Assembly (NCBI GenBank): GCA_017964255.1
Contig: JAGCSI010000034.1
Coordinates: 9,992-73,991, forward strand
DNA: 64,000 bases
Reading direction: 5' to 3'
DNA from: Bacteroidales bacterium
Lineage (GTDB): Bacteria; Bacteroidota; Bacteroidia; Bacteroidales; WCHB1-69
The position numbers and the translations under genes were made by a program. How positions within the stretch are numbered: position 1 is the stretch's first letter; every line of letters starts with the position of its first letter. Below, in pieces: positions 853 through 63,189 of the stretch. The notes under the pieces were generated by a model. That model did not search any database, was not told where the DNA came from, and worked only from the letters and a program-made list of their open reading frames with translations.

Positions 853-2925
853 CTATTTCTCCAAGCGGATACGGGCATCCACAGCGGTAACGTAGCTTGG
901 GTTGCCCAAAAGCGGGTTGAGGTCCATCTCCGCGATTTCAGGAGCGGCCTGCACCAAAGCACTCACACGTGCTACTTGGTCAGCGTACAGGTCGAGGTTC
1001 ACAGGCTCCTGGCCACGAACGCCCTGCAGAATCTTGTAGCCACGCAGCTTGGTGAGCATCTCCTTGGCCTCGGCAGCAGTGATAGGAGCCAACGCACTCT
1101 GTACGTCTTTCAGCACCTCGATGAAGATTCCGCCCAAACCGAAAAAGATTTGATGGCCGAACTTGGCGTCCTTGATGGCACCGATATAAACGTCGGTACC
1201 GTCGAGCATGGGGTACATTTCCACTGCGTAGGTGTCTTTAATGGCCATCAGACGGTCGAACTCCTTGCTGACAGTGTCCAGGTCCTTAACGCCGAGGGTT
1301 ACGCCGCCTACGTCGCTTTTGTGCAACGGACCGACCACCTTCATCACGAGAGGCACATCCTTGCTGCAGCCCACCTCTTTGGCGAAGGCCAAGGCATCCT
1401 CTTTCTTGTTTACTTCCACACTTTTCTTGCGGCTGATGCCAGCGGCATCCAGCAGTTCGTTGTAGTCGGCAATTTCCATGTAGCCATCTTTGCAGCGGTC
1501 AACGGTGGCGCGGATACGGGCCACATCAATCTGTGGCAGTTCCACATGTTCGGGCTGCGGTTTGGGAGTGTTGTAAACTTTGCAGATGGCATTACCCAGT
1601 ACACACTCTTCGGGGAAGTTGATACGGCCTTTGGCGATGAAGTCGTTGATTTCGTCCTTCACATTGATGATACTCGGCAGCACGGGGAAGATGGGCTTCT
1701 TGCAGGTCTTCATCTTCTCGTCTAACAAGTCGTATACTTCTTTGTTGCTGAACAAACCGGGAGAGCCGAAGATGACCACGGAGAAGTCGATTTCGTCGTA
1801 TTCATTCTCGACGGTGTCTATAATGTAGCCAAGCTGCTCGGCAGTACCGGTGGCGAGGAAGTCGATGGGGTTGCCCACAGAGGATCCTCCGAAGAGTTTG
1901 GCGAGCAGGGCGGGGCTGGCGGGATGGTCTTTCAGTGAAGGAACCTCCATGCCACCGTTGCTAAGCACATCGGTGAGCATCACGGCGGGACCGCCGGCGT
2001 GGGTGATCACGGCGCAGCGCTTGCCTTTGATTTCGGGATGCATGAACACACCGCAAACGGTGGTCAGCTCCTGGCGATTGTGGCAGCGCACAATGCCTGC
2101 TTTCTGGAACAGGGCATCGACAGCGGCGTCGTTGGTAGCCAAAGCACCAGTGTGTGAAGAAGCGGCACGTGAGCCGGCAGCACTGCCACCGCTCTTGATG
2201 GCGGCGATGTGGCACCCCTTGTTGATGAGGCTTCGGCTGTGCTTGAGCAGACGCTGCGGGTCGCCAATCTTTTCCATATAAAGCATAATGACGTGTGAGG
2301 ACTTTTCAGGATCGAATGTCTCGTCCAAATGTTCGAGTACATCCTCGATGCCGAGTTGCGCACTGTTACCAACTGCCCACACACTGTTGAACTTCAGACC
2401 GTTGCTCATGCCGTATTCCTTGATGAACACAGCCGTGGCTCCGGAACCCGTGATGAAATCGACACCCTTGGGGTCGAGTTTCGGAATCGGCGTGTCAAAA
2501 CAGCCAGCATAGTTCACATTGAGGAAGCCAGTGCAGTTGGGACCGATAAGGGAGCCGCCTACGCTGTTGATGGTATCCACAATGTGCTTCTCAATTTCAG
2601 CGCCTTCGTGGCTCTCTTCCGAGAAACCGGCACTGATGATGATGAAGCCCTTGCAGCCTTTTTCCTTGGCCAGCACATCAACGGTCTGGGCGCAGAACTT
2701 GGCGGCGATACAGAGGATGGCGCAATCTACCTGCGGCAGGTCATCGACTTTGGCGTAGCATTTCACGCCCTGCACTTCGGTCTCTTTGGGGTTGACAGCG
2801 TAAATCTGACCCTTGAAGGGGCTCTCCAAGAGGTTTTTCAGCGATTTTCCACCGGGTTTGTGAATGTCACTCGACGCACCGCATATCACGATGCTTTGGG
2901 GGTTTAATAGTTTTGGGTTGATCAT
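853..2925 (-). CDS. acetate--CoA ligase family protein (ADP-forming acyl-CoA synthetase: CoA-binding + SCS-like + ATP-grasp)
   Basis: 690 aa. N-terminal CoA-binding fold (IVICGAS..HKPGGK), central succinyl-CoA-synthetase-like domain and C-terminal ATP-grasp, the architecture of ADP-forming acetyl-CoA synthetases. Confidence 0.85.
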   Translation of the reverse strand: MINPKLLNPQSIVICGASSDIHKPGGKSLKNLLESPFKGQIYAVNPKETEVQGVKCYAKVDDLPQVDCAILCIAAKFCAQTVDVLAKEKGCKGFIIISAGFSEESHEGAEIEKHIVDTINSVGGSLIGPNCTGFLNVNYAGCFDTPIPKLDPKGVDFITGSGATAVFIKEYGMSNGLKFNSVWAVGNSAQLGIEDVLEHLDETFDPEKSSHVIMLYMEKIGDPQRLLKHSRSLINKGCHIAAIKSGGSAAGSRAASSHTGALATNDAAVDALFQKAGIVRCHNRQELTTVCGVFMHPEIKGKRCAVITHAGGPAVMLTDVLSNGGMEVPSLKDHPASPALLAKLFGGSSVGNPIDFLATGTAEQLGYIIDTVENEYDEIDFSVVIFGSPGLFSNKEVYDLLDEKMKTCKKPIFPVLPSIINVKDEINDFIAKGRINFPEECVLGNAICKVYNTPKPQPEHVELPQIDVARIRATVDRCKDGYMEIADYNELLDAAGISRKKSVEVNKKEDALAFAKEVGCSKDVPLVMKVVGPLHKSDVGGVTLGVKDLDTVSKEFDRLMAIKDTYAVEMYPMLDGTDVYIGAIKDAKFGHQIFFGLGGIFIEVLKDVQSALAPITAAEAKEMLTKLRGYKILQGVRGQEPVNLDLYADQVARVSALVQAAPEIAEMDLNPLLGNPSYVTAVDARIRLEK

Positions 2926-2962
2926 GTTTATGTTTGTTTTTGTTGTATTGTTTATTTATTTT

Positions 2963-3161
2963 GTCGTTTATGCGTTAAGACGTTAAGACATGCACTTCGT
3001 ACATTCGTTAAGACGTTAAAGCGATGTGTTATTCGCATTTATTCGTCTCCTATTCGTTAAGGCGTTAAGACATGCATTGCGTGCATTCGGTTAGGCGTTA
3101 TTGCAATTATCGTCTTAACGAGCGAATGAAGTGAGCGTCTCCACGTCTCCACGTCTTCACG
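2963..3161 (-). repeat. family-A composite intergenic element, copy 1 (CGTTAAGACG...CGTCTTAACG bounded)
   Basis: cgttaagacg (2973-2982, tandemly repeated) and its exact reverse complement cgtcttaacg (3111-3120) bracket small hairpins (atgca..tgcat). An octamer tail gtctccac gtctccac gtcttcac follows. It fills the gap between the pgm stop (3167) and the acs-like start (2925). Confidence 0.8.
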
Positions 3162-3166: not shown

Positions 3167-4891
3167 CTACAGTTTCATCTCCTCAATTATCCCCTTGATC
3201 TTCGCCTGCATTGCGGCATTGGCCTCGTCGTATTTGGCTACATCAGGCAACTCGCCCACCACACCGAAATAGAACTTGATTTTGGGTTCGGTGCCGGAGG
3301 GACGGACGGTGATTTTGGAGCCGTCGGCCGTGAAGAACTGCAGCACATTGGACTTGGGCAGGGCAATGGGTTCTTGCGTGCCTTTGTCCAAGTGATAAGC
3401 GATGCTAGCCTGGATGTCGTTCATCAGCACCACCTTCTGTCCACCGATTTCTTTCGGAGGATTGTTGCGGTAGTTGACCATCATGGCGGCGATTTCCTCG
3501 GCACCGCTCTTGCCCTGTTTGGTCAGCGAAAGCAGGTCTTCTTTGTAGAAACCGTATTCGTGGTAGATTTCGAGCAGCATCTGGTACAAACTCTTGCCCT
3601 GGTTAGCGTAGAAGGCGGTCATTTCGGCGATAAGACAGCAGGCAATGACGGCATCTTTGTCTCTTACAAAGTCGCCGGCCAGGTAGCCGTAGCTTTCCTC
3701 ACCACCACCGATGAAGCTCATCTGGCCCTCATGCTCTTTGATTTTTTCCGCAATATATTTGAAGCCGGTCAACACATCGAAGCAAGGCACCTGATAGGCA
3801 TCGGCCATGCGCTTGATTAATTCGGTGGTGACGATGGTCTTGACGACAAACTGTTTGCCGTTGATTTTGTTGAGGGCTTTCCACTGCGACAGCAGATAGT
3901 GAACCAGCAGGGAGCCAGTCATGTTGCCGTTGAGCAGGATCATCTCACCTTTGGAGTTGCGCACAGCGATACCCACGCGGTCGGCATCGGGATCGGTGGC
4001 CAGCACCAGGTCAGCTTTCTCGGCCTCTGCCTGGGTGATAGCCATCACGAGGGCGCTTTTTTCCTCGGGGTTAGGTGACTTCACGGTGGGGAAGTTGCCG
4101 TCGCTGACAGCTTGCTCTTTGACGATGCTGATGTTTTCAAATCCGTACATCTTCAAGGCCTTGGGCACCATGGTGATGCCGGTGCCGTGCAGCGGAGTGT
4201 AGATGATTTTCAGCTGTTTCTGAGCGGCAATGGCCTCTGGATGCAGCGATAGGCCGTGAACCAGCTTTAGGTAAGCCTCATCCAGGCTGCTATCGATGAT
4301 ATGCACTTTGTCGGGGTTGCGCTGCCATTTGGTATCATGCAGCGACTTGATTTTGTTGACCTCGGCAATGACATTTTTGTCGTGTGGGGGCACCAATTGT
4401 CCACCGTCATTCCAATATACTTTGTAGCCGTTATATTCTTTCGGATTGTGCGAGGCGGTCACCATTACACCCGACTGGCAGTGCAGGTAGCGCACAGCGA
4501 AAGACAGCACCGGGGTGGGGCGCAGCTCTGGGAACAGGTGGCAGGTGATGCCGTTGGCGGAGAGCACGTCGGCGGTGATGTCGGCGAAATAAGCGCTGTT
4601 GTTGCGTGAATCGAAGGCGATGGCTACGCTGATTTCCTGCTTGGGGAACTGCTGTTTCAGGTAGTTGGCCAGTCCTTGGGTGGCGGCGCCCACCGTGTAT
4701 TTGTTCATGCGGTTGGTGCCCACGCCCATGATGCCGCGCAGACCGCCCGTGCCGAATTCCAGGTCACGGTAGAAAGCCTCGGTCAGCTCGTCGGGGTTGT
4801 TTTGCTGGTATTCCCTGATTTTCGCTTTGGTATCGGCATCGTAGTCGTCGTTCAGCCACAGCGCCACGCGTTCTTCAATATATTTATCCAT
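3167..4891 (-). CDS. phosphoglucomutase/phosphomannomutase family protein (alpha-D-phosphohexomutase)
   Basis: 574 aa. Phosphoserine loop TASHNPKEYNGYK; length and order of four-domain phosphohexomutases. Confidence 0.9.
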   Translation of the reverse strand: MDKYIEERVALWLNDDYDADTKAKIREYQQNNPDELTEAFYRDLEFGTGGLRGIMGVGTNRMNKYTVGAATQGLANYLKQQFPKQEISVAIAFDSRNNSAYFADITADVLSANGITCHLFPELRPTPVLSFAVRYLHCQSGVMVTASHNPKEYNGYKVYWNDGGQLVPPHDKNVIAEVNKIKSLHDTKWQRNPDKVHIIDSSLDEAYLKLVHGLSLHPEAIAAQKQLKIIYTPLHGTGITMVPKALKMYGFENISIVKEQAVSDGNFPTVKSPNPEEKSALVMAITQAEAEKADLVLATDPDADRVGIAVRNSKGEMILLNGNMTGSLLVHYLLSQWKALNKINGKQFVVKTIVTTELIKRMADAYQVPCFDVLTGFKYIAEKIKEHEGQMSFIGGGEESYGYLAGDFVRDKDAVIACCLIAEMTAFYANQGKSLYQMLLEIYHEYGFYKEDLLSLTKQGKSGAEEIAAMMVNYRNNPPKEIGGQKVVLMNDIQASIAYHLDKGTQEPIALPKSNVLQFFTADGSKITVRPSGTEPKIKFYFGVVGELPDVAKYDEANAAMQAKIKGIIEEMKL

Positions 4892-4920: not shown

Positions 4921-4928
4921 CAAACTTA
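4921..4928 (-). promoter_or_regulatory. Bacteroidota -7 box (TAagTTTG on minus strand)
   Basis: caaactta is the reverse complement of taagtttg, 30 nt upstream of the ATG at 4891. Confidence 0.55.
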
Positions 4929-5006
4929 CAAAAAGTTTTCGGATTGTCAAAAAATATTTTTGCCATATAATTCCCCTTCTTTAAGACTCGACGAACGAGC
5001 GATGTG

Positions 5007-5034
5007 GTAGAGACGTTTCATGAAACTTCTCTAC
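5007..5034. repeat. 28-bp palindrome family B, copy 1
   Basis: gtagagacgtttcatgaaacttctctac, one mismatch from a perfect palindrome. Preceded by the flank module ttaagactcgacgaacgagcg. Confidence 0.85.
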
Positions 5035-5563: not shown

Positions 5564-5616
5564 TCAAAAGCCCTGTTTAATTTCCCTTTATTAGATTCGA
5601 CGAACGAACGAGTATG

Positions 5617-5644
5617 GTAGAGACGTTTCATGAAACGTCTCTAC
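5617..5644. repeat. 28-bp palindrome family B, copy 2 (perfect)
   Basis: gtagagacgtttcatgaaacgtctctac, preceded by the flank ttagattcgacgaacgaacgag. Confidence 0.9.
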
Positions 5645-5664: not shown

Positions 5665-5754
5665 GAATTCAAAGTTCAGAATTCAAAATTCAATTGGTAC
5701 ATTAGCACATTAAAACAATTTGCTAATTTACTAATTAACTAATTTGCTAATTAA
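5665..5754. repeat. heptamer (GAATTCA-like) plus octamer (AATTTGCT-like) tandem tracts abutting the ftsW stop
   Basis: gaattca aagttca gaattca aaattca, then aatttgct aatttact aattaact aatttgct aattaatc. The tract ends at the stop codon at 5755-5757. Confidence 0.8.
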
Positions 5755-6828
5755 TCACGCTTCTTGTTTGCTGATGTTCAGCAACACACCGGTAGCGATG
5801 CCGGCAAAGAGTAGGGAGGCACCGCCACGACTGATGAAGGGCAGTGTCTGTCCGGTGGCGGGCAGGAGCCCGCAGTTGACACCAATGTGTACCAAGCCCT
5901 GACAACAGAACCAGAAACCTATACCTACCGCCAAGAGCATGCCGAAGGGTCCTTCGCTGCGCTTGGCGATTTTTATGGAGCGGATAAACAGCATCAGGTA
6001 GCAGGCCAGAATGATCAGGCTGGCGGTGATGCCCAATTCCTCCGTCACTGTGGTGAACACGTAGTCAGTGTCTTTTTCAGGCAGATTCTTGTTGATGACT
6101 CCCTGTCCAGGTCCTGCTGGCAGCAGTCCCGAACGGGCAATGGCAGCCTTCGACATAATCATTTGGTCGCCATAACCTTCGCTGTTGTCGTTGGTGATGT
6201 AATAGTGACAGCGGTGGCGGAAGGTGCTGGAACGTCCGGAGTTGGTTCCGAACAGGTAAATGGAGCCGAAGAAAACCGCCACAAAGCAGAAGAGCATAAG
6301 ATGCTTGATTCTGACATTGCCTAAAAACATAATGGCCAGGCTGGTGGCGAAAAAGATGATAGCGGTGGACATGTTGCTGAGAGCCATGCCACCGGTGAAC
6401 AGCAAGACGACAACAAATAGTCCTGACACGTCCTGTAAGGTCATTCTGGAATCATTGTTGATGCGGACGGCCAGGAATTTGGCGATGAAAAAAATGACCA
6501 GGAAACCGATGAAATAGAAAGTCTGGATTTCCATGGATCCGATTTGGATGCCTCGCCGTTCTTCATTACCGAACGCCAGGGTTGCCACCAGTAGAATGCC
6601 AGCTGCAAACAGGGAGAAGAGCGCCAGCCTCGACAATGCCTGGTAGTTGATTTTGTAGGCAACAAACATACCGACAAAGCATAGGGCGAGGTTGAACAAA
6701 TGGTGAATGAAGACAGAGGTCGATTTGGCAGAGCTTAACACTGCCAACACCGAAATCAAGGACAGGACAATGGTGATGATCAGGATGCCCCTGTCTCCTT
6801 TGAATTTGAATTTCTCCCTTAGATCCAT
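5755..6828 (-). CDS. ftsW: FtsW/RodA/SpoVE (SEDS) family cell-division protein
   Basis: 357-aa polytopic membrane protein. SEDS-like blocks KDTDYVFTTVTEELG and TGQTLPFISRGGAS; sits in the ftsW position of the dcw cluster. Confidence 0.8.
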   Translation of the reverse strand: MDLREKFKFKGDRGILIITIVLSLISVLAVLSSAKSTSVFIHHLFNLALCFVGMFVAYKINYQALSRLALFSLFAAGILLVATLAFGNEERRGIQIGSMEIQTFYFIGFLVIFFIAKFLAVRINNDSRMTLQDVSGLFVVVLLFTGGMALSNMSTAIIFFATSLAIMFLGNVRIKHLMLFCFVAVFFGSIYLFGTNSGRSSTFRHRCHYYITNDNSEGYGDQMIMSKAAIARSGLLPAGPGQGVINKNLPEKDTDYVFTTVTEELGITASLIILACYLMLFIRSIKIAKRSEGPFGMLLAVGIGFWFCCQGLVHIGVNCGLLPATGQTLPFISRGGASLLFAGIATGVLLNISKQEA

Positions 6829-6833
6829 TTATA

Positions 6834-6991
6834 GTCGTTTATTCGTTTATGCGTTAAGACGTTAAGACATGCACTTTGTGCATTCGTTAAGGCGTTAGGA
6901 CGTTAAGATATGTGTTACGTACATTCATCAAGGTAATTATCGTTTTAACGAGCGAACGAAGTGAGCGTCTCCACGCCTTCACGTTTCCACG
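6834..6991 (-). repeat. family-A composite intergenic element, copy 2
   Basis: cgttaagacg (6852-6861) pairs with cgttttaacg (6941-6950). Internal hairpin atgcac ttt gtgcat; octamer tail gtctccac gccttcac gtttccac. It fills the whole gap between the murD-remnant stop (6993) and the ftsW start (6828). Confidence 0.8.
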
Positions 6992-6992: not shown

Positions 6993-7550
6993 TTATAACT
7001 GTGCTACCGCGTCTTTGAACTTGTCACCTCTTTCGCGGTAAGTGTGATACATGCCGAAACTGGTGGTTCCGGGAGCGAAAAGGATGGCGTCGCCGGCATC
7101 GGAAGCATAATAGGCGGTGCGAACAGCATCTTCCAGATTGTCACAAATATCCACCATTTTGTCCAAACCGGAAATGAAATCGTATACTTCTGTGTTGTAA
7201 ACATCTACCATGATGATATGTTTCACCTTTTCGTTGATAATGTCCACGAGACTGTCGCTGATATTCTCGCGTTTGTCAATGCTCATGATCCAAGTGGTAG
7301 GCTTGGTCATGCTTTCCAGGGCAAACCATACAGCGTTGGCGTTGGTGGAGCGTGAGTCGTTGATAAAATCTCTGCCTTCGATGGTCTTGACCAGCTCGAG
7401 GTTGTTGGCGCTGCCCTCGAAGTCGGACATGGATTCGTTCAAGCTTTCGTTACGTGCGTGGAGCAGTCTGCCCGCTACGGCAGCGGCCATGCTGCTGCGG
7501 TTGTCGGTGGTGGGGAATACGTTGTACCCAATGTTTTTGTTTGTTGCCAT
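6993..7550 (-). CDS. murD: MurD C-terminal-domain-only ORF (truncated UDP-N-acetylmuramoylalanine--D-glutamate ligase; likely gene remnant)
   Basis: 185 aa, versus roughly 440 aa for MurD (from memory). Only the C-terminal region is recognisable (DFINDSRSTNANAVWFALESM; LFAPGTTSFGMYHTYRERGDKFKDAV). The ATG lies 3 nt after the mraY stop, so there is no room for the N-terminal and P-loop domains. Confidence 0.6.
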   Translation of the reverse strand: MATNKNIGYNVFPTTDNRSSMAAAVAGRLLHARNESLNESMSDFEGSANNLELVKTIEGRDFINDSRSTNANAVWFALESMTKPTTWIMSIDKRENISDSLVDIINEKVKHIIMVDVYNTEVYDFISGLDKMVDICDNLEDAVRTAYYASDAGDAILFAPGTTSFGMYHTYRERGDKFKDAVAQL

Positions 7551-8832: not shown

Positions 8833-10308
8833 TTAGAGATTAAAGTTTGCTTTTATTTCTTCGGTGTCATCAAAGTGATGTTTCACGTGGTTGATTTCCT
8901 GATAGTTCTCGTGGCCTTTACCGGCAACCAGCAGCACATCCTTGCCTTGCATCAGCATGCAGGCGGTCTTGATGGCCTCGTGGCGGTTCTCGATGACCAG
9001 CACCTTGCGTTTTTGGTCGGCGCCCACTCCTTGAAGCATGTCGTTGAGGATGTCCTCGGGTTTCTCGGTACGGGGATTGTCGGAGGTCAGGATGACCTTG
9101 TCGCTGTATTCGCAGGCGATGGCGGCCATCTCTGGGCGTTTCAGCTTGTCGCGGTCACCACCGCATCCTACCACGGTGATGATGTTCACGCTGTGCTGCG
9201 TGATGTCGGTGATGGTGGAGAGCACGTTCTTCAGTGCGTCGGGGGTATGGGCGTAATCAACAATGGCAGAACCTCCTTCAGTATTGCGGATCAGCTGGAA
9301 ACGGCCGGCAGCGCTACCCAAGCCACTCATTTGCTGTAATACCTCGGCGGAATCCATACCCAGCAGGATGGCGGCACCGTAAATGGCCAGCAGGTTGTAG
9401 GCATTGAAGCGGCCACATAATTTGAAATACACTTCCTGTCCATTGATGGTCATCTGCAGACCAGTGAAGTCATTGTCCAAAATAACTCCTTTGAAATCAG
9501 CAGTTTTCAGCAAACTGTAAGTCTTGACTTTGGCCCTGCTGTTTTGTGTCATCACCAGGCCGTTCTTGTCATCAATGTTGGTCAGAGCGAAAGCGTTTTC
9601 AGGCAGTTCGTCGAAGAATTTCTTCTTGGCTTTGATGTATTCGGCAAAGGTTTTATGATAGTCCAAATGGTCGTGGGTAATGTTGCTGAAAATGCCTCCG
9701 GCGAAATGTAATCCCGCGATGCGGTGCTGGCAGATGGCGTGTGAGCTGACTTCCATGAAGCAGTACTGGCAGCCAGCTTCCACCATGCGGTGAAGCAGTT
9801 CGTTCAGCACGATGGCGTCGGGGGTGGTGTGTGTAGTGGGGATGACTTCGTTTACAATGCGGTTTTCAATGGTGGAAAGCAGTCCGGTGGGGTAACCCAT
9901 GCTGTTGAACAAGCGGTACAGCAGGGTGACGGTAGTGGTTTTGCCATTGGTGCCGGTGATGCCCACCAAATGCAGTTTCTGGCTGGGGAAATCATAAAAA
10001 GCACTGGCCAACAATCCAAGGGCGATGTCACTGTTAGGCACCTTGATGAAGGTGACATCCTGAGGTAGAGACGTTTCCTGAAACGTCTCTGCAGGAATCT
10101 CTTCGCAAACAATCATTCTGCCGCCCTGTTCAATGACTTTGCCGATGAAACTGTGGCCATCCACATGGGTGCCACGCTGGGCGACAAACAAGGTGTTAGC
10201 ATCGTTTGCTTTGCGCGAGTCAAAGGTGATGTTCTCCACCTGACGCTCGGCAGATCCTATGAGTTCATATTTTCCAATGTGTTGCAATAAAAAAGATAAG
10301 GTTTTCAT
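8833..10308 (-). CDS. murE: UDP-N-acetylmuramoyl-L-alanyl-D-glutamate--2,6-diaminopimelate ligase
   Basis: 491 aa. P-loop GITGTNGKTTT and a DNPR motif (TSDNPRTEKPEDI) typical of DAP-adding MurE. Confidence 0.95.
   Translation of the reverse strand: MKTLSFLLQHIGKYELIGSAERQVENITFDSRKANDANTLFVAQRGTHVDGHSFIGKVIEQGGRMIVCEEIPAETFQETSLPQDVTFIKVPNSDIALGLLASAFYDFPSQKLHLVGITGTNGKTTTVTLLYRLFNSMGYPTGLLSTIENRIVNEVIPTTHTTPDAIVLNELLHRMVEAGCQYCFMEVSSHAICQHRIAGLHFAGGIFSNITHDHLDYHKTFAEYIKAKKKFFDELPENAFALTNIDDKNGLVMTQNSRAKVKTYSLLKTADFKGVILDNDFTGLQMTINGQEVYFKLCGRFNAYNLLAIYGAAILLGMDSAEVLQQMSGLGSAAGRFQLIRNTEGGSAIVDYAHTPDALKNVLSTITDITQHSVNIITVVGCGGDRDKLKRPEMAAIACEYSDKVILTSDNPRTEKPEDILNDMLQGVGADQKRKVLVIENRHEAIKTACMLMQGKDVLLVAGKGHENYQEINHVKHHFDDTEEIKANFNL
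10065..10092. repeat. 28-bp palindrome family B, copy inside murE coding sequence
   Basis: gtagagacgtttcctgaaacgtctctgc differs from the intergenic consensus at 2 positions. It is translated in-frame as AETFQETSL in the MurE N-terminal domain. Confidence 0.85.
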
Positions 10309-14346: not shown

Positions 14347-14354
14347 CAAAGATA
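14347..14354 (-). promoter_or_regulatory. Bacteroidota -7 box (TAtcTTTG on minus strand) for mraZ
   Basis: caaagata lies 24 nt upstream of the mraZ ATG (14323). Confidence 0.55.
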
Positions 14355-14857
14355 TATCTTTTTTCAATACTTTTTCCACAATTTTTCCTTTTTAGTCAAA
14401 AAAAGATAATATTGTAATGTAAATATCTGAAAATCAGTGTGGAAAAAAATGGTAATTTTTTCGAATTTAAAGGATTAATAAGCTAAAATATTGATTTTTC
14501 AGTAGATAAAGTTATATAATTTAATAAATCATAACTTTTTAAAAATCAATACTATATAAGAAATAAATGGAGGTCTTTCCAAAATTTTCCACAATAGATT
14601 GTTGATTTTCGGAGAAATCTGGAAAAAAATGGAAACTTTTGGAGCGGGAAGGAAAGTTATCAACAAAAAAACGACCCGAAGGTCGTTATGCTTTCCACAG
14701 GGGAATGTTGATTAATTAACAAATTGGTTAATTAGCAAATAAGCAAATGATTTTAATGTGCTAATGTGCAAATTGATGATTACGATTTGCTCGAATGAGG
14801 CTCGAAAACGGCCTCAAAGAGGTCGAATCTTAGTAACCCCGCACGTAAGTGTGGGGT

Positions 14858-16174: not shown

Positions 16175-16306
16175 TAATTAGCTAATTAGCAAATTAGTTA
16201 ATTAGCAAATTAGCAAATGATTTTTGGGAGTCTCATGCTAAGCATTCGAGGGAGAGTTGTAAATGTGCTAATTGAATTTTGAATTCTATTCAATGTGCCA
16301 ATTGAA
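16175..16306. repeat. mosaic of octamer (AATTAGCA) tract, 30-bp C element and heptamer tract
   Basis: taattagc taattagc aaattagt taattagc aaattagc (16175-16219). C element gggagtctcatgctaagcattcgagggagag (16226-16256). Heptamers aaatgtg ctaattg aattttg aattcta ttcaatg tgccaat run up to the stop at 16308. Confidence 0.8.
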
Positions 16307-17314: not shown

Positions 17315-17486
17315 CGTAAAAAACACATATTTCTGATCTTAAAAAGACTCCCCTCGAACGCAGTGCGAGATTTCCCCAAATTTTCTCATTTGCTAATTTA
17401 CTAATTAACCTATTTGCTAATTCTCTTCAACATTTCCCTGTGTATAAATACTATCCTCTTTTTGAAAATAGAGGGCAATATCCTTT

Positions 17487-20000: not shown

Positions 20001-20057
20001 AGGTGCCAGTGGTCAGTGGACAGAAAAATCTGTAACCTGCAACCTGTAACCTAATCC
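20001..20057. repeat. heptamer tracts (CAGTGGT-like and CTGTAAC-like) between convergent stops
   Basis: ccagtgg tcagtgg acag, then ctgtaac ctgcaac ctgtaac ctaatcc. The tract ends at the nadB stop (20058-20060). Confidence 0.75.
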
Positions 20058-27372: not shown

Positions 27373-29088
27373 ATGGATATTCTGACAGTAAATGATTTTT
27401 CTCTGGAATTGAAGCGTGATGAGGAATGGAAACAGATTCTGCATCACGTGACTTTTTCGTTGGGAAAAGGGGAGACTGTCGGTATCGTGGGCGAGTCGGG
27501 TTCTGGCAAGTCGGTGACCGCTTTGTCGGTAATGCAGTTGCTGAATCGGAAAATAGCCAAATTCACGTCGGGAAGCATAGTCTTTCATGACAAAGACAGT
27601 GAAATTAGTATTTTGGACGCATCGGAAACGCAGATGCGGAGTATTCGGGGTGCTCGTATCGCCATGATTTTCCAGGAGCCTATGACCTCCCTCAATCCGG
27701 TCATCAAGTGTGGCGATCAGGTGACGGAGGCGATTTTGCTGCATAACGACATCAGCGAAAAAGAGGCCCGCGAGCAGGTGATTACACTTTTCAAAGAAGT
27801 GATGTTACCTCGTCCGGAAAAAATCTTTGATTCTTATCCTCATGAGTTGTCCGGTGGCCAGAAACAGCGTGTGATGATCGCCATGGCCATGAGCTGTCAT
27901 CCCGATATCCTGATTGCGGATGAGCCTACTACCGCACTGGATGTGACGGTGCAGAAGAATATTCTGGAACTGATACGCAGTCTGCAGCAGAAGCATGGCA
28001 TGAGCGTGATTTTTATCACCCACGATTTGGGTGTGGTGGCCGAAATCGCCGAAAAAGTGGTGGTGCTGTACAAGGGCCAGATTGTGGAGGCGGGACCGAT
28101 ACAAGAGATTTTCAGACATCCTCAACATCCTTATACACAGGGCTTGTTGGCATGTCGTCCGCCTTTGGATGTGCGTTTGAAAAAATTATCCACAGTGGAT
28201 GATTACATGCGCAGTGCGGAAGAGCATAAGGCGGTGCCAAAAGAGATTGTCTCTCCGGAGGAAAGACAAGTTTTCCATCAGCAGTTATATGCTGAGAAAC
28301 CGTTGATATGCATTGAGCATTTGTTCAAGACCTATCCCATTCGAAAACGGAAGTTGTTTGAGAAGCAGGAGTATGTCCATGCAGTGCAAGATATTAGTTT
28401 GGAAGTGTTTGAAGGAGAAACCCTGGGTTTGGTAGGCGAGTCGGGTTGCGGCAAAACCACTTTGGGCAGGTCCATGATCCGCTTGATTGAACCCACTTCA
28501 GGAATCGTAACTTATAAAGGGGAGAATTTGCTGAATTTGTCGGGACGGGAGATGATGAAACACCGCAAAGACCTGCAAATTATTTTGCAAGATCCTTATT
28601 CGTCTTTAAATCAGCGAATTACTATAGGTTCGGCCATCATGGAGCCAATGCAGGTGCATCATTTGTATGCCAATGACAAGGAACGGAAAAAACGGGCGAT
28701 AGAGTTGCTGGAGCGTGTTAGTTTGGACGAGTCGCATTTCTACCGCTATCCGCACGAGTTTTCCGGTGGTCAGCGGCAGCGTATCAGTATTGCCCGTGCC
28801 TTGGCGGTGAACCCTCGCTTCATCATCTGCGATGAGTCAGTTTCCGCGCTGGATGTGTCGGTACAGGCCCAGGTGCTGAATCTGCTTAATGAGTTGAAAC
28901 AGGAATACCATCTGACCTATATCTTCATTTCTCACGACTTGTCGGTGGTGAAGTTCATGTCCGATAGGATGGCGGTCATGCAGAATGGTAGAATAGTGGA
29001 ATTAAATGATGCGGACGAGGTGTATGCCCATCCGCAGACAGATTATACTAAAAAATTAATCGGGGCTATTCCCAAAGGTATTAATTAA
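27373..29088 (+). CDS. ABC transporter ATP-binding protein with duplicated ATPase domains (Dpp/Opp/YejF type)
   Basis: 571 aa from MDILTVNDF. Two Walker A motifs ([16 protein letters not shown]) and two signature motifs ([16 protein letters not shown]). Confidence 0.9.
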
Positions 29089-29112
29089 GAACTAAGAATT
29101 AAGAGTTAAGAA
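29085..29112. repeat. (TTAAGAA)4 heptamer tract overlapping the ABC stop codon
   Basis: ttaagaa ctaagaa ttaagag ttaagaa. The TAA stop at 29086-29088 lies in unit 1. Confidence 0.8.
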
Positions 29113-29135
29113 CCAAGTATTTAAAATAACAAGAT

Positions 29136-30231: not shown

Positions 30232-30256
30232 AATCTATAGTAGTAATTAGTTTTGT

Positions 30257-30313
30257 ATTCTGAACTTTGAATTTTGAATTCTCTAAACTCTAATCCCTGT
30301 CCCCTGTAACCTG
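30257..30313. repeat. eight drifting heptamer units ending 1 nt from the stop of the first T9SS paralog
   Basis: attctga actttga attttga attctct aaactct aatccct gtcccct gtaacct, followed by the stop (tca at 30314-30316). Confidence 0.85.
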
Positions 30314-33157
30314 TCATCTCTCCCTGATCACCTGTAGCGTCCCATGATAATTCACCGTCTTCAATTTCCCCTTGTAATAAAAGGTAAAAAAGTAGGTTCC
30401 GTCAGTGACTTTGGACGCGTCGAAAACTTGTTCGCCAATGATAATCCCGTTGCCTCTTTCTCCCGTCATATCTTTGAAAGTGTCGTAGTTTATCGCATGA
30501 TAAACTTGCTTGCCCCAGCGATCATAGATGAATAGCTCGTTATTTCTGTATTTGTCTGGGTCAAAAACGTTCATGGTGGTGTTGAGATTGCCGATAGCGA
30601 ACACATCGTTCACTCCATCGCCATTGGGTGTGATGACGTTCGGGAAGACAAGGTCCGCTTCGAGTGTTACCGTGTGAGCGATGCTGCTGCTACAACCGTC
30701 AGAGGAGGATAGGGATAGCGTGACAACATAATCTCCCCAACTGCTATAATTATGCTCAATGCTGTAGCCCGAAGACTCACTGGAACCATCGCCAAAATCC
30801 CAAAGAATACTCATATTGTCCTCGAAAGACAGGGTGTCGCCCATAACATGAAATGTAATGACACCACCGCTTTCCGCCCAAAGGGAAATTTCTGGCAATG
30901 CTTCAAATTCGGCGACTGGCTGATAGTTCACATTGATTAAGTCAGACTTTAATAGCGAGTCTTGGCAGCCTTCGGGGCTTGTTATCGTGAGTTGTATGCT
31001 GTATATGCCACTTTGCTCGAAAGTGTAGTTGGGGTTTTGTTGCGATGAGGTGAAAACTATCTGTCCATATTCATCCCAACAGGTCCAATAATATTGTAAA
31101 TTTTCCCCTGTGACTACGCTCCTGTCAGTAAAGGTTACAGACAAAGGGGAACATCCACTGGTGTCGCTGACGGAAAAATCTGCCGTCGGTTTGGGTGCCA
31201 CCTGAATCAACACCGTGTCAGCGCCACTGCATACCAAGCCGTCTTCGGAGGTGTTGAATACATTCAGGGAATATTCGCCTGCAGAGGTAAGATAAATATC
31301 TGAGGTGTGCTCGCCAGTGCTCCATAAAAAGGTGGAGTTGTTATCCTGCCAGTTGGAAGTCAACAAGTATAGGTCACCGAAGCAGATAAAACGGTCATCT
31401 CCCAGGTCGGGCTGGGGACTTTGGGTAATGTCGATGTGCATAACGGTGTCATAAAGACAGCCATACTCATCGATTACATTCACCGTGTATGGAATATTGC
31501 CGCTTTGATTGGGCACAATATAGGTGCCGTTAGCTCCCGGACCTGTGATGAAGATGGTGTCCACTGCTACGGCATACGACCAGTTTTGGGGAAGTAGGGA
31601 GGGATCCAAAGCCATTTCCCATTCATGTAGATAACCATTGTCATTAGTCCATACATCCTCGATTTCGATGTACCAGCTGCCGTTCAAGGGACAACCTACC
31701 ATACCTGCGAAACTTTGAAGAGGATGATACACTTGGGTCATATTGGCCACGTCAGTGGAGTCGATTTTGTAGGAAGTAGAGCCATCATCCCAATAGGGGT
31801 TGGGCGTGGAGTGCACATTGCCAGGCTCATAACAATAGCTGTTTGGTGTGCTGGCATATTGATAACCTAATGTCGTGTTGTTCGACCATACATAATTCCA
31901 AGCAATTCCCATAGGATTTTGTGAGGCGTTGCAACTTACCACCTCCTGCAAGCGGTTTGCTACTCCCAAATTGGTCCGGAAGTAGTGGGTGACACCGCCC
32001 CAACCGTCATACTGGTAGTCGGGAACAATCTTGCAGCGACTTCCATTAGGACATACCAGTGAGATACGAATGTCTTCGATGGCAGAGTGCTCTATTTTCA
32101 AGCGCACATACAGAATGTCGTTGGCGCTGGTGATGGTTGCATTGGGCGAAAAAGCCGTGAAATTGACGTATGAACGGTAGTAATAGCCGTAAGGCGGACA
32201 ACTTATGCCGTCGGGGAGAAAAACCGTATCCACGACAGCCAATGAGGTGATTTGTTCACTTCCTACCGGGGTCAGTTGCAAGGAGGATAAATTGTCATAG
32301 CCTACCGACAGGTGCAATTCGTCGCCTGTGCATGCGGGCGCTTGGGCGGCAATCCCTTTGATGGGATTCTTGGAGGTGCGCACACGGAAGGTAATGGGCA
32401 CTAACGATGGGCATTGGCTGACATCAATGGCGCTGATGGCCACGTCATAGCCGCGTCCTGGTGTGAAGTAGTAGTCAATGGTATTCCCACCTGTAATGTC
32501 AAACTCTTCCAAGTCAAAATCCCACTTGAACGAGGTGGTGGCGTCAGACTGATGATAGCTGAAGTCATTGTCGGGATAGTCACAGTGAACCACAAAATGA
32601 ACGGTGTCATAAGGACAGACATCCACATAATAGTAGCTGTCTTCAGGATTCAGATGGGGAATATGGGTGGATTGTAATGAATCCAAGTAAATGTTCACGC
32701 GTTGGCATGGGGCAATGCAGCTGGTATGCAGTTCAAAGCCTTCGCTTACATTGGCGGAATCGGTCTTGAATCTGACGGTGATGGCACCAGTGGCATTTTG
32801 GATGGTGGCTGCATAACGGTAGGTGACAGTAGGATTGTAATTTCCATTGTTGATTTTGTGCAGCAATATTCCGTTGGTATCGGTTCCGTCGTAGAAATAA
32901 AGGGTGTCGTTTTCGTCGATATTCAGGCTTTGGACCTCTACCACGACACAGCCGTTGTTGGGGTCGTTGGAGGTGATGGTCAGTGTCTGGTCGAGATTTG
33001 AAGAGTAGTCTCCACTGGCCCCGCCATTGTCATAGATCAGCAAGTCACAGCCGGCAATGGCCGAACTGGCTCCAAGGTTTATGGTGCCTTGGGCGATAAG
33101 CATGGGTAAGCAGGAGATGAATAGTACAAACAAAAAGAAAGACTTTCTCATAAGCAT
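30314..33157 (-). CDS. T9SS type-B C-terminal sorting domain surface protein, paralog 1 (CUB-like + P-domain-like + PKD repeats + CTD)
   Basis: 947 aa with a signal peptide. N-terminal CUB-like block (CDLLIYDNGG...DTLYFYDG); P-domain-like block (LYVRLKIEHSAIEDIRISLVCPNGS). PKD-like WDFGDGS. C-terminus FPNVITPNGDGVNDVF...IYDRWGKQVY...GTYFFTFYYKG matches the gliding-motility C-terminal (type B) domain. Confidence 0.8.
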   Translation of the reverse strand: MLMRKSFFLFVLFISCLPMLIAQGTINLGASSAIAGCDLLIYDNGGASGDYSSNLDQTLTITSNDPNNGCVVVEVQSLNIDENDTLYFYDGTDTNGILLHKINNGNYNPTVTYRYAATIQNATGAITVRFKTDSANVSEGFELHTSCIAPCQRVNIYLDSLQSTHIPHLNPEDSYYYVDVCPYDTVHFVVHCDYPDNDFSYHQSDATTSFKWDFDLEEFDITGGNTIDYYFTPGRGYDVAISAIDVSQCPSLVPITFRVRTSKNPIKGIAAQAPACTGDELHLSVGYDNLSSLQLTPVGSEQITSLAVVDTVFLPDGISCPPYGYYYRSYVNFTAFSPNATITSANDILYVRLKIEHSAIEDIRISLVCPNGSRCKIVPDYQYDGWGGVTHYFRTNLGVANRLQEVVSCNASQNPMGIAWNYVWSNNTTLGYQYASTPNSYCYEPGNVHSTPNPYWDDGSTSYKIDSTDVANMTQVYHPLQSFAGMVGCPLNGSWYIEIEDVWTNDNGYLHEWEMALDPSLLPQNWSYAVAVDTIFITGPGANGTYIVPNQSGNIPYTVNVIDEYGCLYDTVMHIDITQSPQPDLGDDRFICFGDLYLLTSNWQDNNSTFLWSTGEHTSDIYLTSAGEYSLNVFNTSEDGLVCSGADTVLIQVAPKPTADFSVSDTSGCSPLSVTFTDRSVVTGENLQYYWTCWDEYGQIVFTSSQQNPNYTFEQSGIYSIQLTITSPEGCQDSLLKSDLINVNYQPVAEFEALPEISLWAESGGVITFHVMGDTLSFEDNMSILWDFGDGSSESSGYSIEHNYSSWGDYVVTLSLSSSDGCSSSIAHTVTLEADLVFPNVITPNGDGVNDVFAIGNLNTTMNVFDPDKYRNNELFIYDRWGKQVYHAINYDTFKDMTGERGNGIIIGEQVFDASKVTDGTYFFTFYYKGKLKTVNYHGTLQVIRER

Positions 33158-60726: not shown

Positions 60727-61818
60727 TTATTTATCGAAGATGATTTGTGAACCTCTGACCTTATCGCCTTCTTTCAACCCATTGGTAATTTGGATATTGA
60801 TGCCATCGCTCAAACCTGTGGTGACAGCCTGTCGGGTGAAGTTGCCATCCTTTTTGACATAGACAAAGGTGGAATCCCCTTCAAATTCGAGGGCACTTTC
60901 GGGAATGGCCAATACATCGGTGGCCTGTTCAAGAATGATTTTGGCGTTGGCACTGTAGCCGGAACGTATTTTGTGCTCTTTCTGCGGTAACACAGCGGCC
61001 TTAATCTCAAATTTGTTGGTACCGTTACTCTCGGTCGCCTTGGGTGCGATGTATTCCAAAGTGGCTTCAAAACTCAGGTTTTGCAAGGCCCCGATGGTGA
61101 TAATCAGCGGCATGCCTTCCTGTAGTGTGCCCACTTCGGTTTCGTCCACACTGCCCGTGAAAATCAGGTCGTTCATATTGGCAATGGTGGCCACGGTGGT
61201 GCCGTCGTTGAGGGTATTGGCCTGGATGACGGAGTTACCCACCTTGACAGGAACATCCAGAATCAGTCCCGAAATGGTGGAGCGCACCAGGGTAGAGCTG
61301 GAGGTGGCGTTGGTGGAGGACACGCCATCGCGGATAATCTCCAAAGCGTCTTGGGCTGCCGATTTCTCCTCTCGGGCCTGATTCAGTAATTGTGTGGTTT
61401 TCTCAAAGGATTCCTGGCTGATCAGCTTCTGGTCGTATAGCATTTTTTCCCGCTTGTAATTGCTCAAAGACTGTTCGTAGTTGATTTCCGCCAGTCGGAC
61501 ACGGCTTTGGGCCGCACTCAGCGAGTTCATGTCGGGAATCACCTTCAGTTTGGCAATCACCTCGTTTTCTTTCACTTCCTGTCCCGCTTCCTTGTATAAT
61601 TCGGCGATGATGCCGTTGATTTGCGGCTTGATGGCCACCTCGTTGCGGGGACTGATTTTGCCGGTAATCAAAGCTTCCCGCTGGATATCCATCTTCGCTA
61701 CCTCGTATTCGTTATACTGAATTTCTTTTTTTCTGGATTTCTGGAACAGAAAAACGAAAGTGCCGATAAAAATCAGGCCAATCAGCGTGAAAATGATAAT
61801 TTTGAGTCCCTTTTTCAT
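60727..61818 (-). CDS. efflux transporter periplasmic adaptor subunit (HlyD/MacA family)
   Basis: 363 aa. N-terminal anchor, a coiled-coil hairpin region, and barrel-sandwich/beta-barrel segments. It lies between the permease and TolC genes. Confidence 0.85.
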   Translation of the reverse strand: MKKGLKIIIFTLIGLIFIGTFVFLFQKSRKKEIQYNEYEVAKMDIQREALITGKISPRNEVAIKPQINGIIAELYKEAGQEVKENEVIAKLKVIPDMNSLSAAQSRVRLAEINYEQSLSNYKREKMLYDQKLISQESFEKTTQLLNQAREEKSAAQDALEIIRDGVSSTNATSSSTLVRSTISGLILDVPVKVGNSVIQANTLNDGTTVATIANMNDLIFTGSVDETEVGTLQEGMPLIITIGALQNLSFEATLEYIAPKATESNGTNKFEIKAAVLPQKEHKIRSGYSANAKIILEQATDVLAIPESALEFEGDSTFVYVKKDGNFTRQAVTTGLSDGINIQITNGLKEGDKVRGSQIIFDK

Positions 61819-61843: not shown

Positions 61844-61947
61844 ATCGTTTATACGGTTATACGTTAAGGCGTTAAGACGACATTATTCATTTTTTCTGTT
61901 TTTCCGAACGAACGTAGTGAGTGTCTCCACGCTTCCACGTCTTAACG
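61844..61947 (-). repeat. family-A composite intergenic element, copy 3 (short form)
   Basis: cgttaagacg (61870-61879) and its exact reverse complement cgtcttaacg (61938-61947). Contains gtgtctccacgcttccacg. It lies between the permease stop (61957) and the adaptor start (61818). Confidence 0.8.
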
Positions 61948-61956: not shown

Positions 61957-63189
61957 CTATTCATCTCTCATCGCATCTACAGGTTTTATATGCATGGCTC
62001 GGTAGGCAGGGGCGATGCCCGCTAACATGCCGAGAATAGTAAGCAGGAAAAATGCTGCCATGGCTGTGCCAAAGTTAATCTGGAAGGCGGTTTCGTGGTG
62101 CGCGATCACTTCAAGCGCATTCAGCATGAATACCGAAAACACAATGGCCGACAGTCCCGCAACCAAAGTGAGTACGATGCCTTCCATGACAATCTGGAAC
62201 AGAATGTCGAAAGGTGTGGCTCCAATAGCTCTGCGGATGCCGATTTCGATGGTGCGCTCTTTCACCACCACCATCATGATGTTGCTTACTCCGATGGCAC
62301 CGGCCAGCAAAGTGCCGATACCTACTAACCATATTAAAAAGTTTACACCTTTGAAAAGGTTGTCTATTATCTTGAAAATTGGTTCCATGTTGAGCATGAA
62401 AAGTGCCTCGTCATCGTCGGGGGCAATGGTATGCTTGCGGTAAACAGCTTGGCGGATGCGGGGTTCCATGTCACTCATCTTCACACCGTCTCGTCCCACC
62501 ATGCAAATCATTCCTACTGCATCTCCCGTATTGAGAATGTCACGTAAAACTGTAATAGGCACGGTAACACTTTCTTCGCTTCGGCCATTGATGTTGATGT
62601 TGGAGCTGCTATAATTCACTCCAATCACTTGATAATAAACAGAGTTTACACAGATGAACTGTCCGCAGGGGTCACCACCTTCCGGAAACAGCGATTGGTA
62701 AATCTGTTTGCCGATGACACATACCTTCCGGTGCTGTTGTATATCCACATTGTTGAGGTAACGTCCATATTTCAGTACCGGGGTTTCCACATACTGGTAG
62801 TCGGCGTCTGCTCCCAGCATATTGCTGTTGACCGAATATCCCTCGTTGACAGCTACTGTGCCCCATTGTGACAACTGCGGAGTGACGATGGACAACTCGG
62901 GAAACAGATGTTTCAGCCGTTCTACGTCTTTAAACTCCAATTGCCAGTAACGTCCTTCCTCGAAACCCTTGTATGGCTTACCTGTCTGGCCCGCCCCCAT
63001 AATGATGGTGTTGGTGGCGAAACCCGAGAAATTCTTGGACAACAGGGCTTTCAATCCGTTTCCGCCTCCGATGAGGAACAACAGCATGAACAAGCCCCAA
63101 AAGATGCCGAAACCGGTGAGGAAACTTCGCCGTTTGTTCCGCATCAGCGAGTCAGAGATTTCTTTGTAACTGTCCAGGTCGAATTTCAT
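61957..63189 (-). CDS. ABC transporter permease (MacB/FtsX family)
   Basis: 410 aa. N-terminal TM, a large periplasmic domain, and a C-terminal three-TM FtsX domain. Confidence 0.85.
   Translation of the reverse strand: MKFDLDSYKEISDSLMRNKRRSFLTGFGIFWGLFMLLFLIGGGNGLKALLSKNFSGFATNTIIMGAGQTGKPYKGFEEGRYWQLEFKDVERLKHLFPELSIVTPQLSQWGTVAVNEGYSVNSNMLGADADYQYVETPVLKYGRYLNNVDIQQHRKVCVIGKQIYQSLFPEGGDPCGQFICVNSVYYQVIGVNYSSSNININGRSEESVTVPITVLRDILNTGDAVGMICMVGRDGVKMSDMEPRIRQAVYRKHTIAPDDDEALFMLNMEPIFKIIDNLFKGVNFLIWLVGIGTLLAGAIGVSNIMMVVVKERTIEIGIRRAIGATPFDILFQIVMEGIVLTLVAGLSAIVFSVFMLNALEVIAHHETAFQINFGTAMAAFFLLTILGMLAGIAPAYRAMHIKPVDAMRDE

Follow-up and report, generated by a model that had tools for sequence, protein, structure and literature searches.

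A probable family of dispersed mosaic palindromic repeats in the intergenic spacers of uncultured rumen Bacteroidales

Introduction

Three related non-coding sequences occupy short gaps between co-directional genes in the chromosome of an uncultured Bacteroidales bacterium. Are they regulatory parts of the operons in which they lie, or members of a repeat family that spreads and changes at the level of DNA? The question was addressed in a window of 64,000 nucleotides (positions 9,992 to 73,991 of contig JAGCSI010000034.1), which corresponds to part of a chromosomal contig with ordinary housekeeping genes (ENA ERZ27256941, 92 kb); no mobile-element, transposase or nearby recombinase gene was found among the window genes. 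Identical sequences are present in independent assemblies (ENA, JGI and NCBI MAGs), so the repeats are not an assembly artefact. Our analysis favours the second option: the three sequences probably belong to a dispersed family of mosaic, palindromic, non-coding repeats, of the type of BIMEs, REP clusters or BOX elements, in the spacers of rumen Bacteroidales.

Results

Three copies of a mosaic repeat in one window

The copies proposed at 2963-3161, 6834-6991 and 61844-61947 were confirmed, both in their coordinates and in the words that they share. The orientation of the repeat is defined here by the core word reading forward; on this definition all three copies lie on the plus strand, between co-directional genes on the minus strand, as originally described. 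Copy 1 (2963..3161, 199 nt, nhmmer E 1e-38) is antisense to the pgm-acs transcript and separates the phosphoglucomutase gene pgm (3167..4891, upstream) from an ADP-forming acyl-CoA synthetase-like gene (853..2925, downstream). Copy 2 (6834..6991, 158 nt) lies between a 185-aa ORF with a weak Mur_ligase_C match (6993..7550) and ftsW (5755..6828), and copy 3 (61844..61947, 104 nt) between the genes for a MacB-type permease (61957..63189) and an HlyD-type membrane-fusion adaptor (60727..61818). The 185-aa ORF had been taken for a remnant of murD; it is conserved in all relatives examined and is not a recent remnant. The gap to the upstream stop codon measures 5 nt for copy 1, 1 nt for copy 2 and 9 nt for copy 3, and the corresponding gaps to the downstream start codon are 37, 5 and 25 nt; these figures replace the gaps of 6-10 and 6-38 nt given before.

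The Bacteroidetes -7 promoter box (TAnnTTTG) is absent from the gene strand of all three window spacers, so that co-transcription through the element is a reasonable assumption; such boxes do occur upstream of pgm (TAAGTTTG, 4921-4928, minus strand) and of mraZ (14347-14354). The proposal that the window copies lie within operons is thus supported by co-directional genes and promoter-box-free spacers, with the operons best termed apparent.

Copy 1 contains the most complete set of parts. Its left arm, CGTTAAGA CGTTAAGA C (2973..2989, plus strand, as for all element parts below), is continued by more left-arm octamers at 3006-3019 and 3055-3071. A first mini-hairpin, ATGCAC-TTC-GTACAT with one mismatch, is found at 2990..3004 and a second, ATGCAT-TGC-GTGCAT, at 3072..3086. 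The apical stem-loop (3088..3120) consists of CGGTTAGGCG, a 13-nt loop TTATTGCAATTAT and CGTCTTAACG, with alignment columns 41-50 pairing with 64-73; the right core AGCGAATGAAGTGAG and a right arm of CGTCTCCA CGTCTCCA CGTCTTCA CG complete the element (3121..3161). The octamer array grades into the A-rich leader of the downstream gene (2926..2962, minus strand). This leader is itself periodic at 8-9 nt, with an array of period 9 at 2925-2964, as if an octamer array had decayed into it.

The left part of copy 2 is built from two TCGTTTAT and two CGTTAAGA units, a hairpin at 6869-6883 and three octamers at 6885-6908. A degenerate hairpin (6910-6924), CGTTTTAACG (6941-6950) and the core (6951-6965) make up the middle, and the right arm reads CGTCTCCA CGCCTTCA CGTTTCCA CG (6966-6991). 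Copy 3, of which L045 holds an orthologous copy, is a short form. Degenerate octamers (61845-61860) are followed by CGTTAAGG CGTTAAGA CG (61862-61879), a T-rich spacer, the variant core CCGAACGAACGTAGTGAG (61904-61921) and TGTCTCCA CGCTTCCA CGTCTTAA CG (61922-61947). Small internal hairpins, which had been ascribed to every copy, are therefore present in copies 1 and 2, and copy 3 has no mini-hairpin. Similarly, CGTCTTAACG forms the right boundary of the element, as had been suggested, in copy 3 only; in copy 1 (3111-3120) and in copy 2 (with CGTTTTAACG as the equivalent) it lies inside the element, as the closing strand of the apical stem, and the core and three CGTCTCCA-type octamers come after it.

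The signature words of the element do not recur in the rest of the window. Allowing two mismatches, CGTTAAGRCGTTAAGAC gave nine matches, all on the plus strand and only within the three elements (expected 0). AGTGAGYGTCTCCACG was found exactly three times, also on the plus strand (expected 0.02), and ATGCAC-N3-GTGCAT with at most one mismatch three times, confined to copies 1 and 2 (expected 0.26). A profile search of the window and 17 kb more of the same contig yielded no fourth copy, which amounts to three copies in 81 kb. About half of the spacers in the window are colonised by 7-8-mer hairpin repeats of one kind or another, a phenomenon that appears to be undescribed.

Architecture of the repeat

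Each copy is an imperfect long inverted repeat. The arms are tandem arrays of CpG-anchored octamers, with CGTTAAGA/CGTGAAGA/CGTGGAGA types in one arm and their complements in the other. The left-arm octamers are CGTTAAGA, CGTTAAGG and CGGTTAGG, to which CGTGAAGA, CGTGGAGA and CGTCAAGG are added in copies elsewhere; the right arm is made of CGTCTCCA, CGTCTTCA or CGTCTTAA. Between the arms lie internal modules of about 41 nt in variable number (0-2 or more), each with the 15-nt mini-palindrome ATGCAC-N3-GTGCAT, an apical 10-bp stem (CGTTAAGGCG/CGTCTTAACG) that encloses a 13-nt loop, and a conserved core of about 27 nt (GAGCGAAYGAAGTGAGCGTCTCCACG). The core AGCGAAYGAAGTGAG is a diverged mirror image of the mini-hairpin module. 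The spacing between CG dinucleotides in 46 unique copies peaks at 8, 16/17, 25 and 33 nt; in coding sequence only a period of 3 is seen.

The stem of the mini-hairpin is almost invariant and its 3-nt loop is variable; a single double change (GTGCAC...GTGCAC) was observed. A nearly invariant palindrome stem around a free 3-nt spacer is the pattern expected of a dimer operator. It suggests an alternative in which the repeat acts as DNA, as an array of protein-binding sites (a dimer on ATGCAC-N3-GTGCAT, and nucleoid, gyrase or IHF-type proteins on the octamers) with a role in supercoiling, insulation or recombination. Nucleoid, gyrase or IHF-type protein binding has been reported for BIMEs. The strict phasing of CpG every 8 nt and a core that is nearly invariant across species point in the same direction, as do sites in untranscribed DNA upstream of promoters, in either orientation (see below). 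An invariant stem with a variable loop is, however, equally expected of a hairpin. Moreover, copy 3 and several other copies have no mini-palindrome, the sequence and number of the octamers vary freely, other repeat families take the place of the element at the same sites, and no candidate binding protein was identified. We therefore give the protein-binding array only a small chance of being the principal explanation.

Distribution of the family

The exact 16- or 26-nt core is present at no fewer than 44 intergenic places, and no ORF at these places contains it. The carriers are the MAGs RGIG6710, RUG11690, RGIG9334 and Tb.RUG.402 and rumen-type metagenome contigs; the 26-nt core was found in 20 metagenome stretches. 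In 470 kb, a profile search delineated 53 element regions with lengths of 31-262 nt. In the scan of genome contigs with the 16-mer most of the listed matches were chance hits in unrelated phyla, and only Bacteroidales loci were kept; three loci (L060, L098 and L026) were discarded as chance matches in coding sequence. By extrapolation the copy number may be guessed at around a hundred per genome.

The family was not found in the reference collections searched. Rfam, at gathering as well as relaxed thresholds, returned nothing beyond a tRNA and noise, and IMG/VR, scanned with the core, left and right words, gave no matches or only chance matches in coding sequence. The element had no match in plasmid and phage collections, and in the literature the exact words were matched by nothing but unrelated primers. 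We regard the family as specific to one clade of uncultured Bacteroidales from the rumen; it appears to be undescribed so far, with no description found in Rfam or the searchable literature.

Between related copies the differences amount to complete octamers or complete modules. There is one hairpin module in L053 and there are two in L063, and the number of right octamers is three in L070, five in L050 and more than eight in L116. Such changes could be taken to mean that the repeat is a minisatellite that arises in situ, by local slippage or growth of a quasi-palindrome in each spacer and without dispersal between sites. The shift of octamer and module numbers by whole units would be accounted for, together with arrays that grade into 8-periodic A/T-rich leaders and the many other 7-8-mer arrays in the spacers of the window. 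As the sole explanation this is nevertheless very improbable: the 26-nt core and the mini-hairpins recur in identical form in several species, at more than 40 sites that are unrelated to each other, which makes an independent origin impossible. Slippage can explain the remodelling of copies and not their origin.

Gene context and orientation

Operon-internal position and a fixed orientation had been put forward as traits of the element. They do not hold for the family, in which all four arrangements of flanking genes and both orientations occur. Taken relative to the core word, the genes on either side of the element, in a set of 44 word matches, are co-directional and antisense in 15 cases, co-directional and sense in 10, divergent in 6 and convergent in 5; these counts are to be read qualitatively, since the loci were found via the exact core word, the sample contains orthologous redundancy and ORFs were called by simple means. 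Many copies lie no more than 25 nt from a stop codon, and the family resembles REPs in being extragenic, multi-copy and located mostly downstream of ORFs. Some copies have a stop codon on one side and a terminator-like or GTAG palindrome on the other (L070, L075, L050, L120), and in genes with a type IX secretion (T9SS) C-terminal domain the TAA stop codon is supplied by the first CGTTAAGG octamer. Others are placed between two outward-facing TAnnTTTG promoters (L121/L127, L113/L131, L009). In two MAGs (L040 versus L024) the 3' end of one gene is adjoined by the element in opposite orientations. The occurrence of copies in sense, antisense and convergent settings, in 3' UTRs and at divergent promoters largely provides what had been named beforehand as evidence against an operon-internal role, namely copies in other contexts and orientations. 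The orientation agreed with the replication strand, as judged from local GC skew, in 30 of 47 copies, a comparison that is confounded by gene strand.

The arms of the element are inverted repeats, and at one and the same junction relatives differ in the orientation of the internal part, as would be expected of an invertible, phase-variable switch of the Bacteroidales inverton type. The 53 element regions (6.7 kb), however, contain no TAnnTTTG box, as compared with 24 in 4 kb of other spacers, and no recombinase gene lies nearby. In addition, the strain of the window is represented by two further, independent assemblies (L001 and L002). Over 14.9 kb, a stretch that covers copies 1 and 2, these show 1-2 substitutions with respect to the window and no unit indels or change of orientation. 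An inverton is thus hardly credible as an explanation.

Tests of an RNA role

If the window copies are transcribed, they could act as cis-acting RNA (a stabiliser, a site of RNase processing, or a polarity or attenuation device), selected to set the relative expression of neighbouring cistrons. Their position, 1-9 nt after stop codons in spacers that have no promoter box, is consistent with this, and so is the predicted fold. Both strands of the window copies fold as a long bulged stem (-22 to -66 kcal/mol, z -1.5 to -5.5); for copy 1 the values are -62.1 kcal/mol (z -5.5) and -65.9 kcal/mol (z -3.1) for the two strands. The long, imperfect hairpin that had been anticipated for the minus-strand transcript was indeed predicted in the window copies, and in the gene-strand fold the A-rich leader of the following gene remains unpaired.

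The other measurements do not point to selection on the RNA. The transcribed strand is the weaker folder, by 3.8 kcal/mol on average and in all three window copies; a strand preference of folding in favour of the mRNA was sought and rejected, as none was found. An argument on strand from GNA triloops was likewise abandoned because the two arms mirror each other, each strand carrying one C-GAA-G loop. On the gene strand of the three window copies the hairpin is followed not by a U-tract but by CAUAAACGA and the A-rich leader; it is therefore not an intrinsic terminator. In 11 copies of equal length, 77% of the cells in the long stem are paired, versus 29-47% when the partners are slid against each other, and the stem as such is thus real. 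Compensatory changes, which had been proposed as a check on this stem, were not in excess: the covariation was 0.062 as compared with 0.053 in shuffles and was reached by 60 of 500 shuffles, and three pairs were changed on both sides where 3.4 were expected, in a test whose power is limited by the 11 copies of equal length and by a right arm that is fixed by ascertainment. Variable positions in the arms of the long stem are often simply unpaired.

Orthologous junctions

FtsW homologues and their contigs were used to compare two junctions, 185aa-ftsW and pgm-acs, between relatives. In the 185aa-ftsW spacer, which measures 164 nt in the window, the element is identical in the window, L104 and L130. 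A homologous copy that is about 11% diverged is present in L142 (FtsW 88% identical to that of the window). The spacer of L137 (FtsW 85%) is rearranged and 222 nt long; its core reads in the sense direction, and it contains a 48-nt unit three times over. The element is replaced by a 56-nt hairpin of (CTGTAAC)n heptamers in L141 (FtsW 91%) and by another short module of 40 nt in L143 (FtsW 85%). In L138, L139, L140 and L144 (FtsW 55-74%) the spacer is empty (11-22 nt). At the pgm-acs junction the CG-octamer element of the window corresponds to a (CTAAGAA)n/(TTCTTAG)n hairpin in L137, to another hairpin in L143 and to an empty spacer of 45 nt in L139. Overall, genus-level relatives carry some spacer element at both junctions, in each case a hairpin repeat except for the ftsW spacer of L143, and distant relatives have empty spacers of 11-45 nt at the two junctions. 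A target-site duplication was not visible when filled and empty 185aa-ftsW and pgm-acs junctions were compared; the whole spacer differs instead.

The presence of a spacer element at both junctions in all genus-level relatives could be read in favour of a selected cis-acting RNA, as could the invariance of copy 2, which is 100% identical in three genomes (window, L104 and L130) whose flanking genes are 88-93% identical. This invariance is the sole hint of constraint. It could mean purifying selection, and a local recombination tract explains it equally well. As proof of function it was rejected: the tract of high identity around copy 2 reaches about 500 nt into ftsW, and the L142 copy has diverged at about the neutral rate. 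Copies upstream of divergent promoters, and both orientations even at one junction (185aa-ftsW, in L137), are at odds with a selected RNA, as are the lack of compensatory variation above shuffles, the weaker folding of the transcribed strand and the gene-strand hairpin without U-tract. Taken together, we regard a selected RNA as unlikely, while granting it some weight; a dispersed mosaic repeat remains the preferred reading.

GTAG palindromes and the mode of spread

A second palindrome, of 28 nt (GTAGAGACG-N10-CGTCTCTAC) and with GTAG inside the stem, occurs four times in the window. It adjoins the element at a constant junction sequence, TTCGGTTAGGCGTTAAGG, in eight loci or more. One of the window palindromes lies in-frame inside murE and is an insertion that is absent from more distant relatives; in-frame insertion within genes is a known behaviour of REPs and RPEs (PMC3733652). 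The octamer GTGGAGAC of the element is one base off the stem GTAGAGAC of the GTAG-type palindrome. On account of this similarity, and because the palindrome often abuts the element, an HUH/RAYT-type enzyme is a plausible agent of spread, with recombination between copies plus slippage as the alternative. A tblastn search with approximate IS200/RAYT protein queries, which is a weak test, gave no match in 470 kb. As no transposase, target-site duplication or defined termini were found, the mobility of the element is deduced only from its distribution.

A bolder proposal is that a lineage-specific process builds and rebuilds spacers from 7-8-nt complementary hairpin-arm units, the candidate agent being an HUH/RAYT-like or other enzyme that acts on GT(A/G)G-headed octamers. 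This is unlikely. If true, it would explain how one family of oligomer hairpins can take the place of another at a given junction with no target-site duplication, and it would represent a new route of REP-array genesis, in a phylum without GTAG-type REPs in the 2013 survey.

Discussion

The family described here is dispersed, modular and restricted to intergenic DNA; at orthologous junctions its copies are present, absent or replaced by other sequences, and they change in unit number. It is best filed as a new family within the known category of small interspersed mosaic palindromic repeats. BIMEs and REP clusters of Enterobacteria offer a close comparison in several respects: they too are short extragenic palindromes with a mosaic structure and conserved linkers (GTAG and CGTC REP superfamilies; Di Nocera et al. 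2013, PMC3733652). Both tend to lie shortly after the end of a coding region, where the neighbouring genes are co-directional or convergent, and both number tens to hundreds of copies that are able to fold into larger hairpins, and as with REPs a related GTAG-type palindrome co-occurs in the genomes of the element, in one case in-frame inside a gene (PMC3733652). The mosaic character is evident from octamer arms, 41-nt module, apical stem and 27-nt core that are combined in various ways, with a variable number of modules.

The differences are nonetheless clear. A tagged REP is a stem-loop of 20-40 nt with an unpaired GTAG or CGTC head (PMC3733652). The mini-hairpin ATGCAC-N3-GTGCAT is flanked by GAC and TCG and has no unpaired GTAG or CGTC head, so the element is not a tagged REP. 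Its arms are tandem 8-nt units, as opposed to the single units with stems of 5-13 bp in REPs, and unlike REPs it also occurs upstream of promoters, with no RAYT found and no sequence similarity. For Bacteroidetes the 2013 survey recorded REPs of the CGTC class alone, its GTAG REPs being from other phyla, and it stated the spread of transposase-less CGTC-type REPs as an open question (PMC3733652).

Likeness to other systems is also architectural only, given that Rfam, plasmids and phages revealed no homology to the families of Escherichia coli or pneumococcus. BOX elements of Streptococcus pneumoniae are intergenic, have a strong predicted structure and consist of a conserved left part, variable internal modules and a conserved right part. 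Our element is likewise intergenic and modular, with variable hairpin modules, conserved parts and a strong predicted secondary structure; unlike BOX, it ends in expandable octamer arrays without fixed termini, and sequence and phylum are unrelated. In cyanobacteria, STRR heptamer arrays are mostly simple direct arrays, and small dispersed repeats are nested in hairpins. There, too, intergenic 7-8-nt tandem arrays with hairpins are found and several families coexist and replace one another in one lineage; the element differs in phylum and sequence and in having two complementary arms around a conserved core. Within the Bacteroidales, BrickBuilt of Porphyromonas gingivalis is a MITE or minisatellite of 23-nt bricks that carries bidirectional promoter elements (Klein et al. 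2015, PMC4596501). It shares with our element inverted-repeat ends and a variable number of tandem direct repeats, a position that is always intergenic, multiple copies and a narrow host range (PMC4596501), and it differs in that the element has 8-nt units in two complementary arms and no -7 promoter box. The original prediction had likened the sequences to BIME/REP or MITE elements. A modular, length-variable, hairpin-forming dispersed repeat agrees with the BIME/REP part of this. The whole element is an imperfect inverted repeat. Its ends, however, consist of octamer arrays that vary in unit number and merge into the flanking sequence, and hence it has no fixed terminus; with no target-site duplication visible at the two junctions either, it is probably not a typical MITE.

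How would such a family come about? The copies are likely to have spread, and to be continually remodelled, at the DNA level rather than by selection for one regulatory RNA. Candidate processes are transposition or strand transfer by some enzyme, or recombination or gene conversion combined with slippage of 8-nt units. The window copies would be passively co-transcribed in the pgm-acs, dcw and macB-hlyD operons, so that a long imperfect hairpin would come immediately behind the upstream stop codon, with the unpaired A-rich leader of the next cistron beside it. A barrier to 3'-to-5' RNA decay is an established effect of REPs and BIMEs. In the three operons the most likely consequence of the hairpin would similarly be a barrier to 3'-exonucleases, by which the upstream cistron may be stabilised relative to the downstream one.

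For Bacteroidota the catalogue of small interspersed repeats is poor, and the present family fills a large proportion of the intergenic spacers of abundant rumen Bacteroidales. It thereby affects the assembly and annotation of MAGs, through contig breaks, false small ORFs and stop codons that derive from the repeat, and it could be used for strain markers in the manner of REP- or BOX-PCR. The copies provide natural test cases of intercistronic hairpins in a phylum that, to our knowledge, lacks Shine-Dalgarno-led initiation. The filled, empty and replaced junctions make these organisms a tractable system for studying how transposase-less palindromic repeats spread.

A GTAG-type palindrome within murE

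The GTAG-type palindrome, a hairpin repeat of the form GTAGAGACG-N10-CGTCTCTAC that often abuts the CG-octamer element, occurs four times in the window. Three copies are intergenic (5005-5034, 5615-5644 and 54465-54494) and the fourth, at 10063-10092, lies within murE (8833-10308, minus strand), where it is in-frame and codes for AETFQETSL (residues 72-80). These residues are absent from the MurE proteins of four of the relatives compared (L138, L139, L140 and L144, stretches found via FtsW homologues), and the insertion is variable in L137 and L141-L143. The copy in murE is an RPE/REP-like insertion, with an essential gene as its host. An Acidobacteria MAG (L026, 6143-6170) has the stem of the palindrome too, located 3' of a stop codon.

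The dcw cluster around copy 2

Copy 2 of the CG-octamer element (6834-6991), a dispersed mosaic repeat with CpG-anchored octamer arms, is flanked by ftsW and a 185-aa ORF (6993-7550, minus strand) that gives only a weak match to Mur_ligase_C. This ORF takes the position expected for murD in the interval from mraY to ftsW, and it is conserved in every relative (L137-L144) at a length of 185 aa or very close to it, down to 55% FtsW identity. ftsW is the last gene of the dcw cluster in the window, and no full-length murD, murG, murC or ftsQAZ follows it there. A tract of about 500 nt (6487-6991), spanning the 5' end of ftsW and the whole of copy 2, is 94-100% identical to L104 and L130, whereas these genomes are otherwise 78-93% identical in the region; the tract could reflect recombination or local constraint.

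Oligomer arrays and further modules in spacers

Of the window spacers of at least 40 nt, about half carry 7-8-mer tandem arrays of other kinds, which often form the two complementary arms of a hairpin and belong to the families AATTAGCA, TAAGAAC/TTAACTG, CTGTAAC, AATTTTG, TGAGCTA and GCTCATC. The arrays lie at 5717-5752, 14708-14748, 16176-16218, 17379-17422 and 59352-59388; at 29083-29117 and 33296-33342; at 20030-20052; at 30251-30280, 41155-41179 and 54442-54462; at 40939-40994; and at 63193-63262. The same families fill, in sister genomes, the junctions that contain the CG-octamer element in the window.

Further dispersed modules, CTCCCCTCGAACGCAGTGCGAG with its complement GGGGAGTCTCATGCTTCGCATTCGAGGGGAG and AGATTCGACGAACGAGCGA, the last adjoining GTAG palindromes, are repeated in the window (about 17350-17380, 16225-16255 and 40995-41030; also 4990-5004, 5600-5614 and 41050-41075) and within elements of other MAGs (L116, L122 and L123). 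In the intervals 46302-46351 and 46433-48231, a perfect 20-nt tandem repeat, GGCGAAATTCCCAAATGAGG in 2.5 copies, precedes a LytTR-domain gene; next after this gene comes one for an N6/N4 DNA methylase, with no restriction enzyme gene adjacent to it in the window.

Type IX secretion genes

The window contains three paralogous genes in tandem, each encoding a PKD/CHU_C (type IX secretion signal) protein of about 950 aa (30314-39774, minus strand; DNA identity 60-88%).

Elsewhere, paralogous genes with a type IX secretion C-terminal domain end in ...KKFIKR* (L120, L122, L124, L126, L128, L132, L136, L070 and L075), and their TAA stop falls within the first CGTTAAGG octamer. Since the final ~150 nt and the element are nearly identical among these paralogues, the data suggest that gene tail and repeat were co-duplicated or gene-converted as one.
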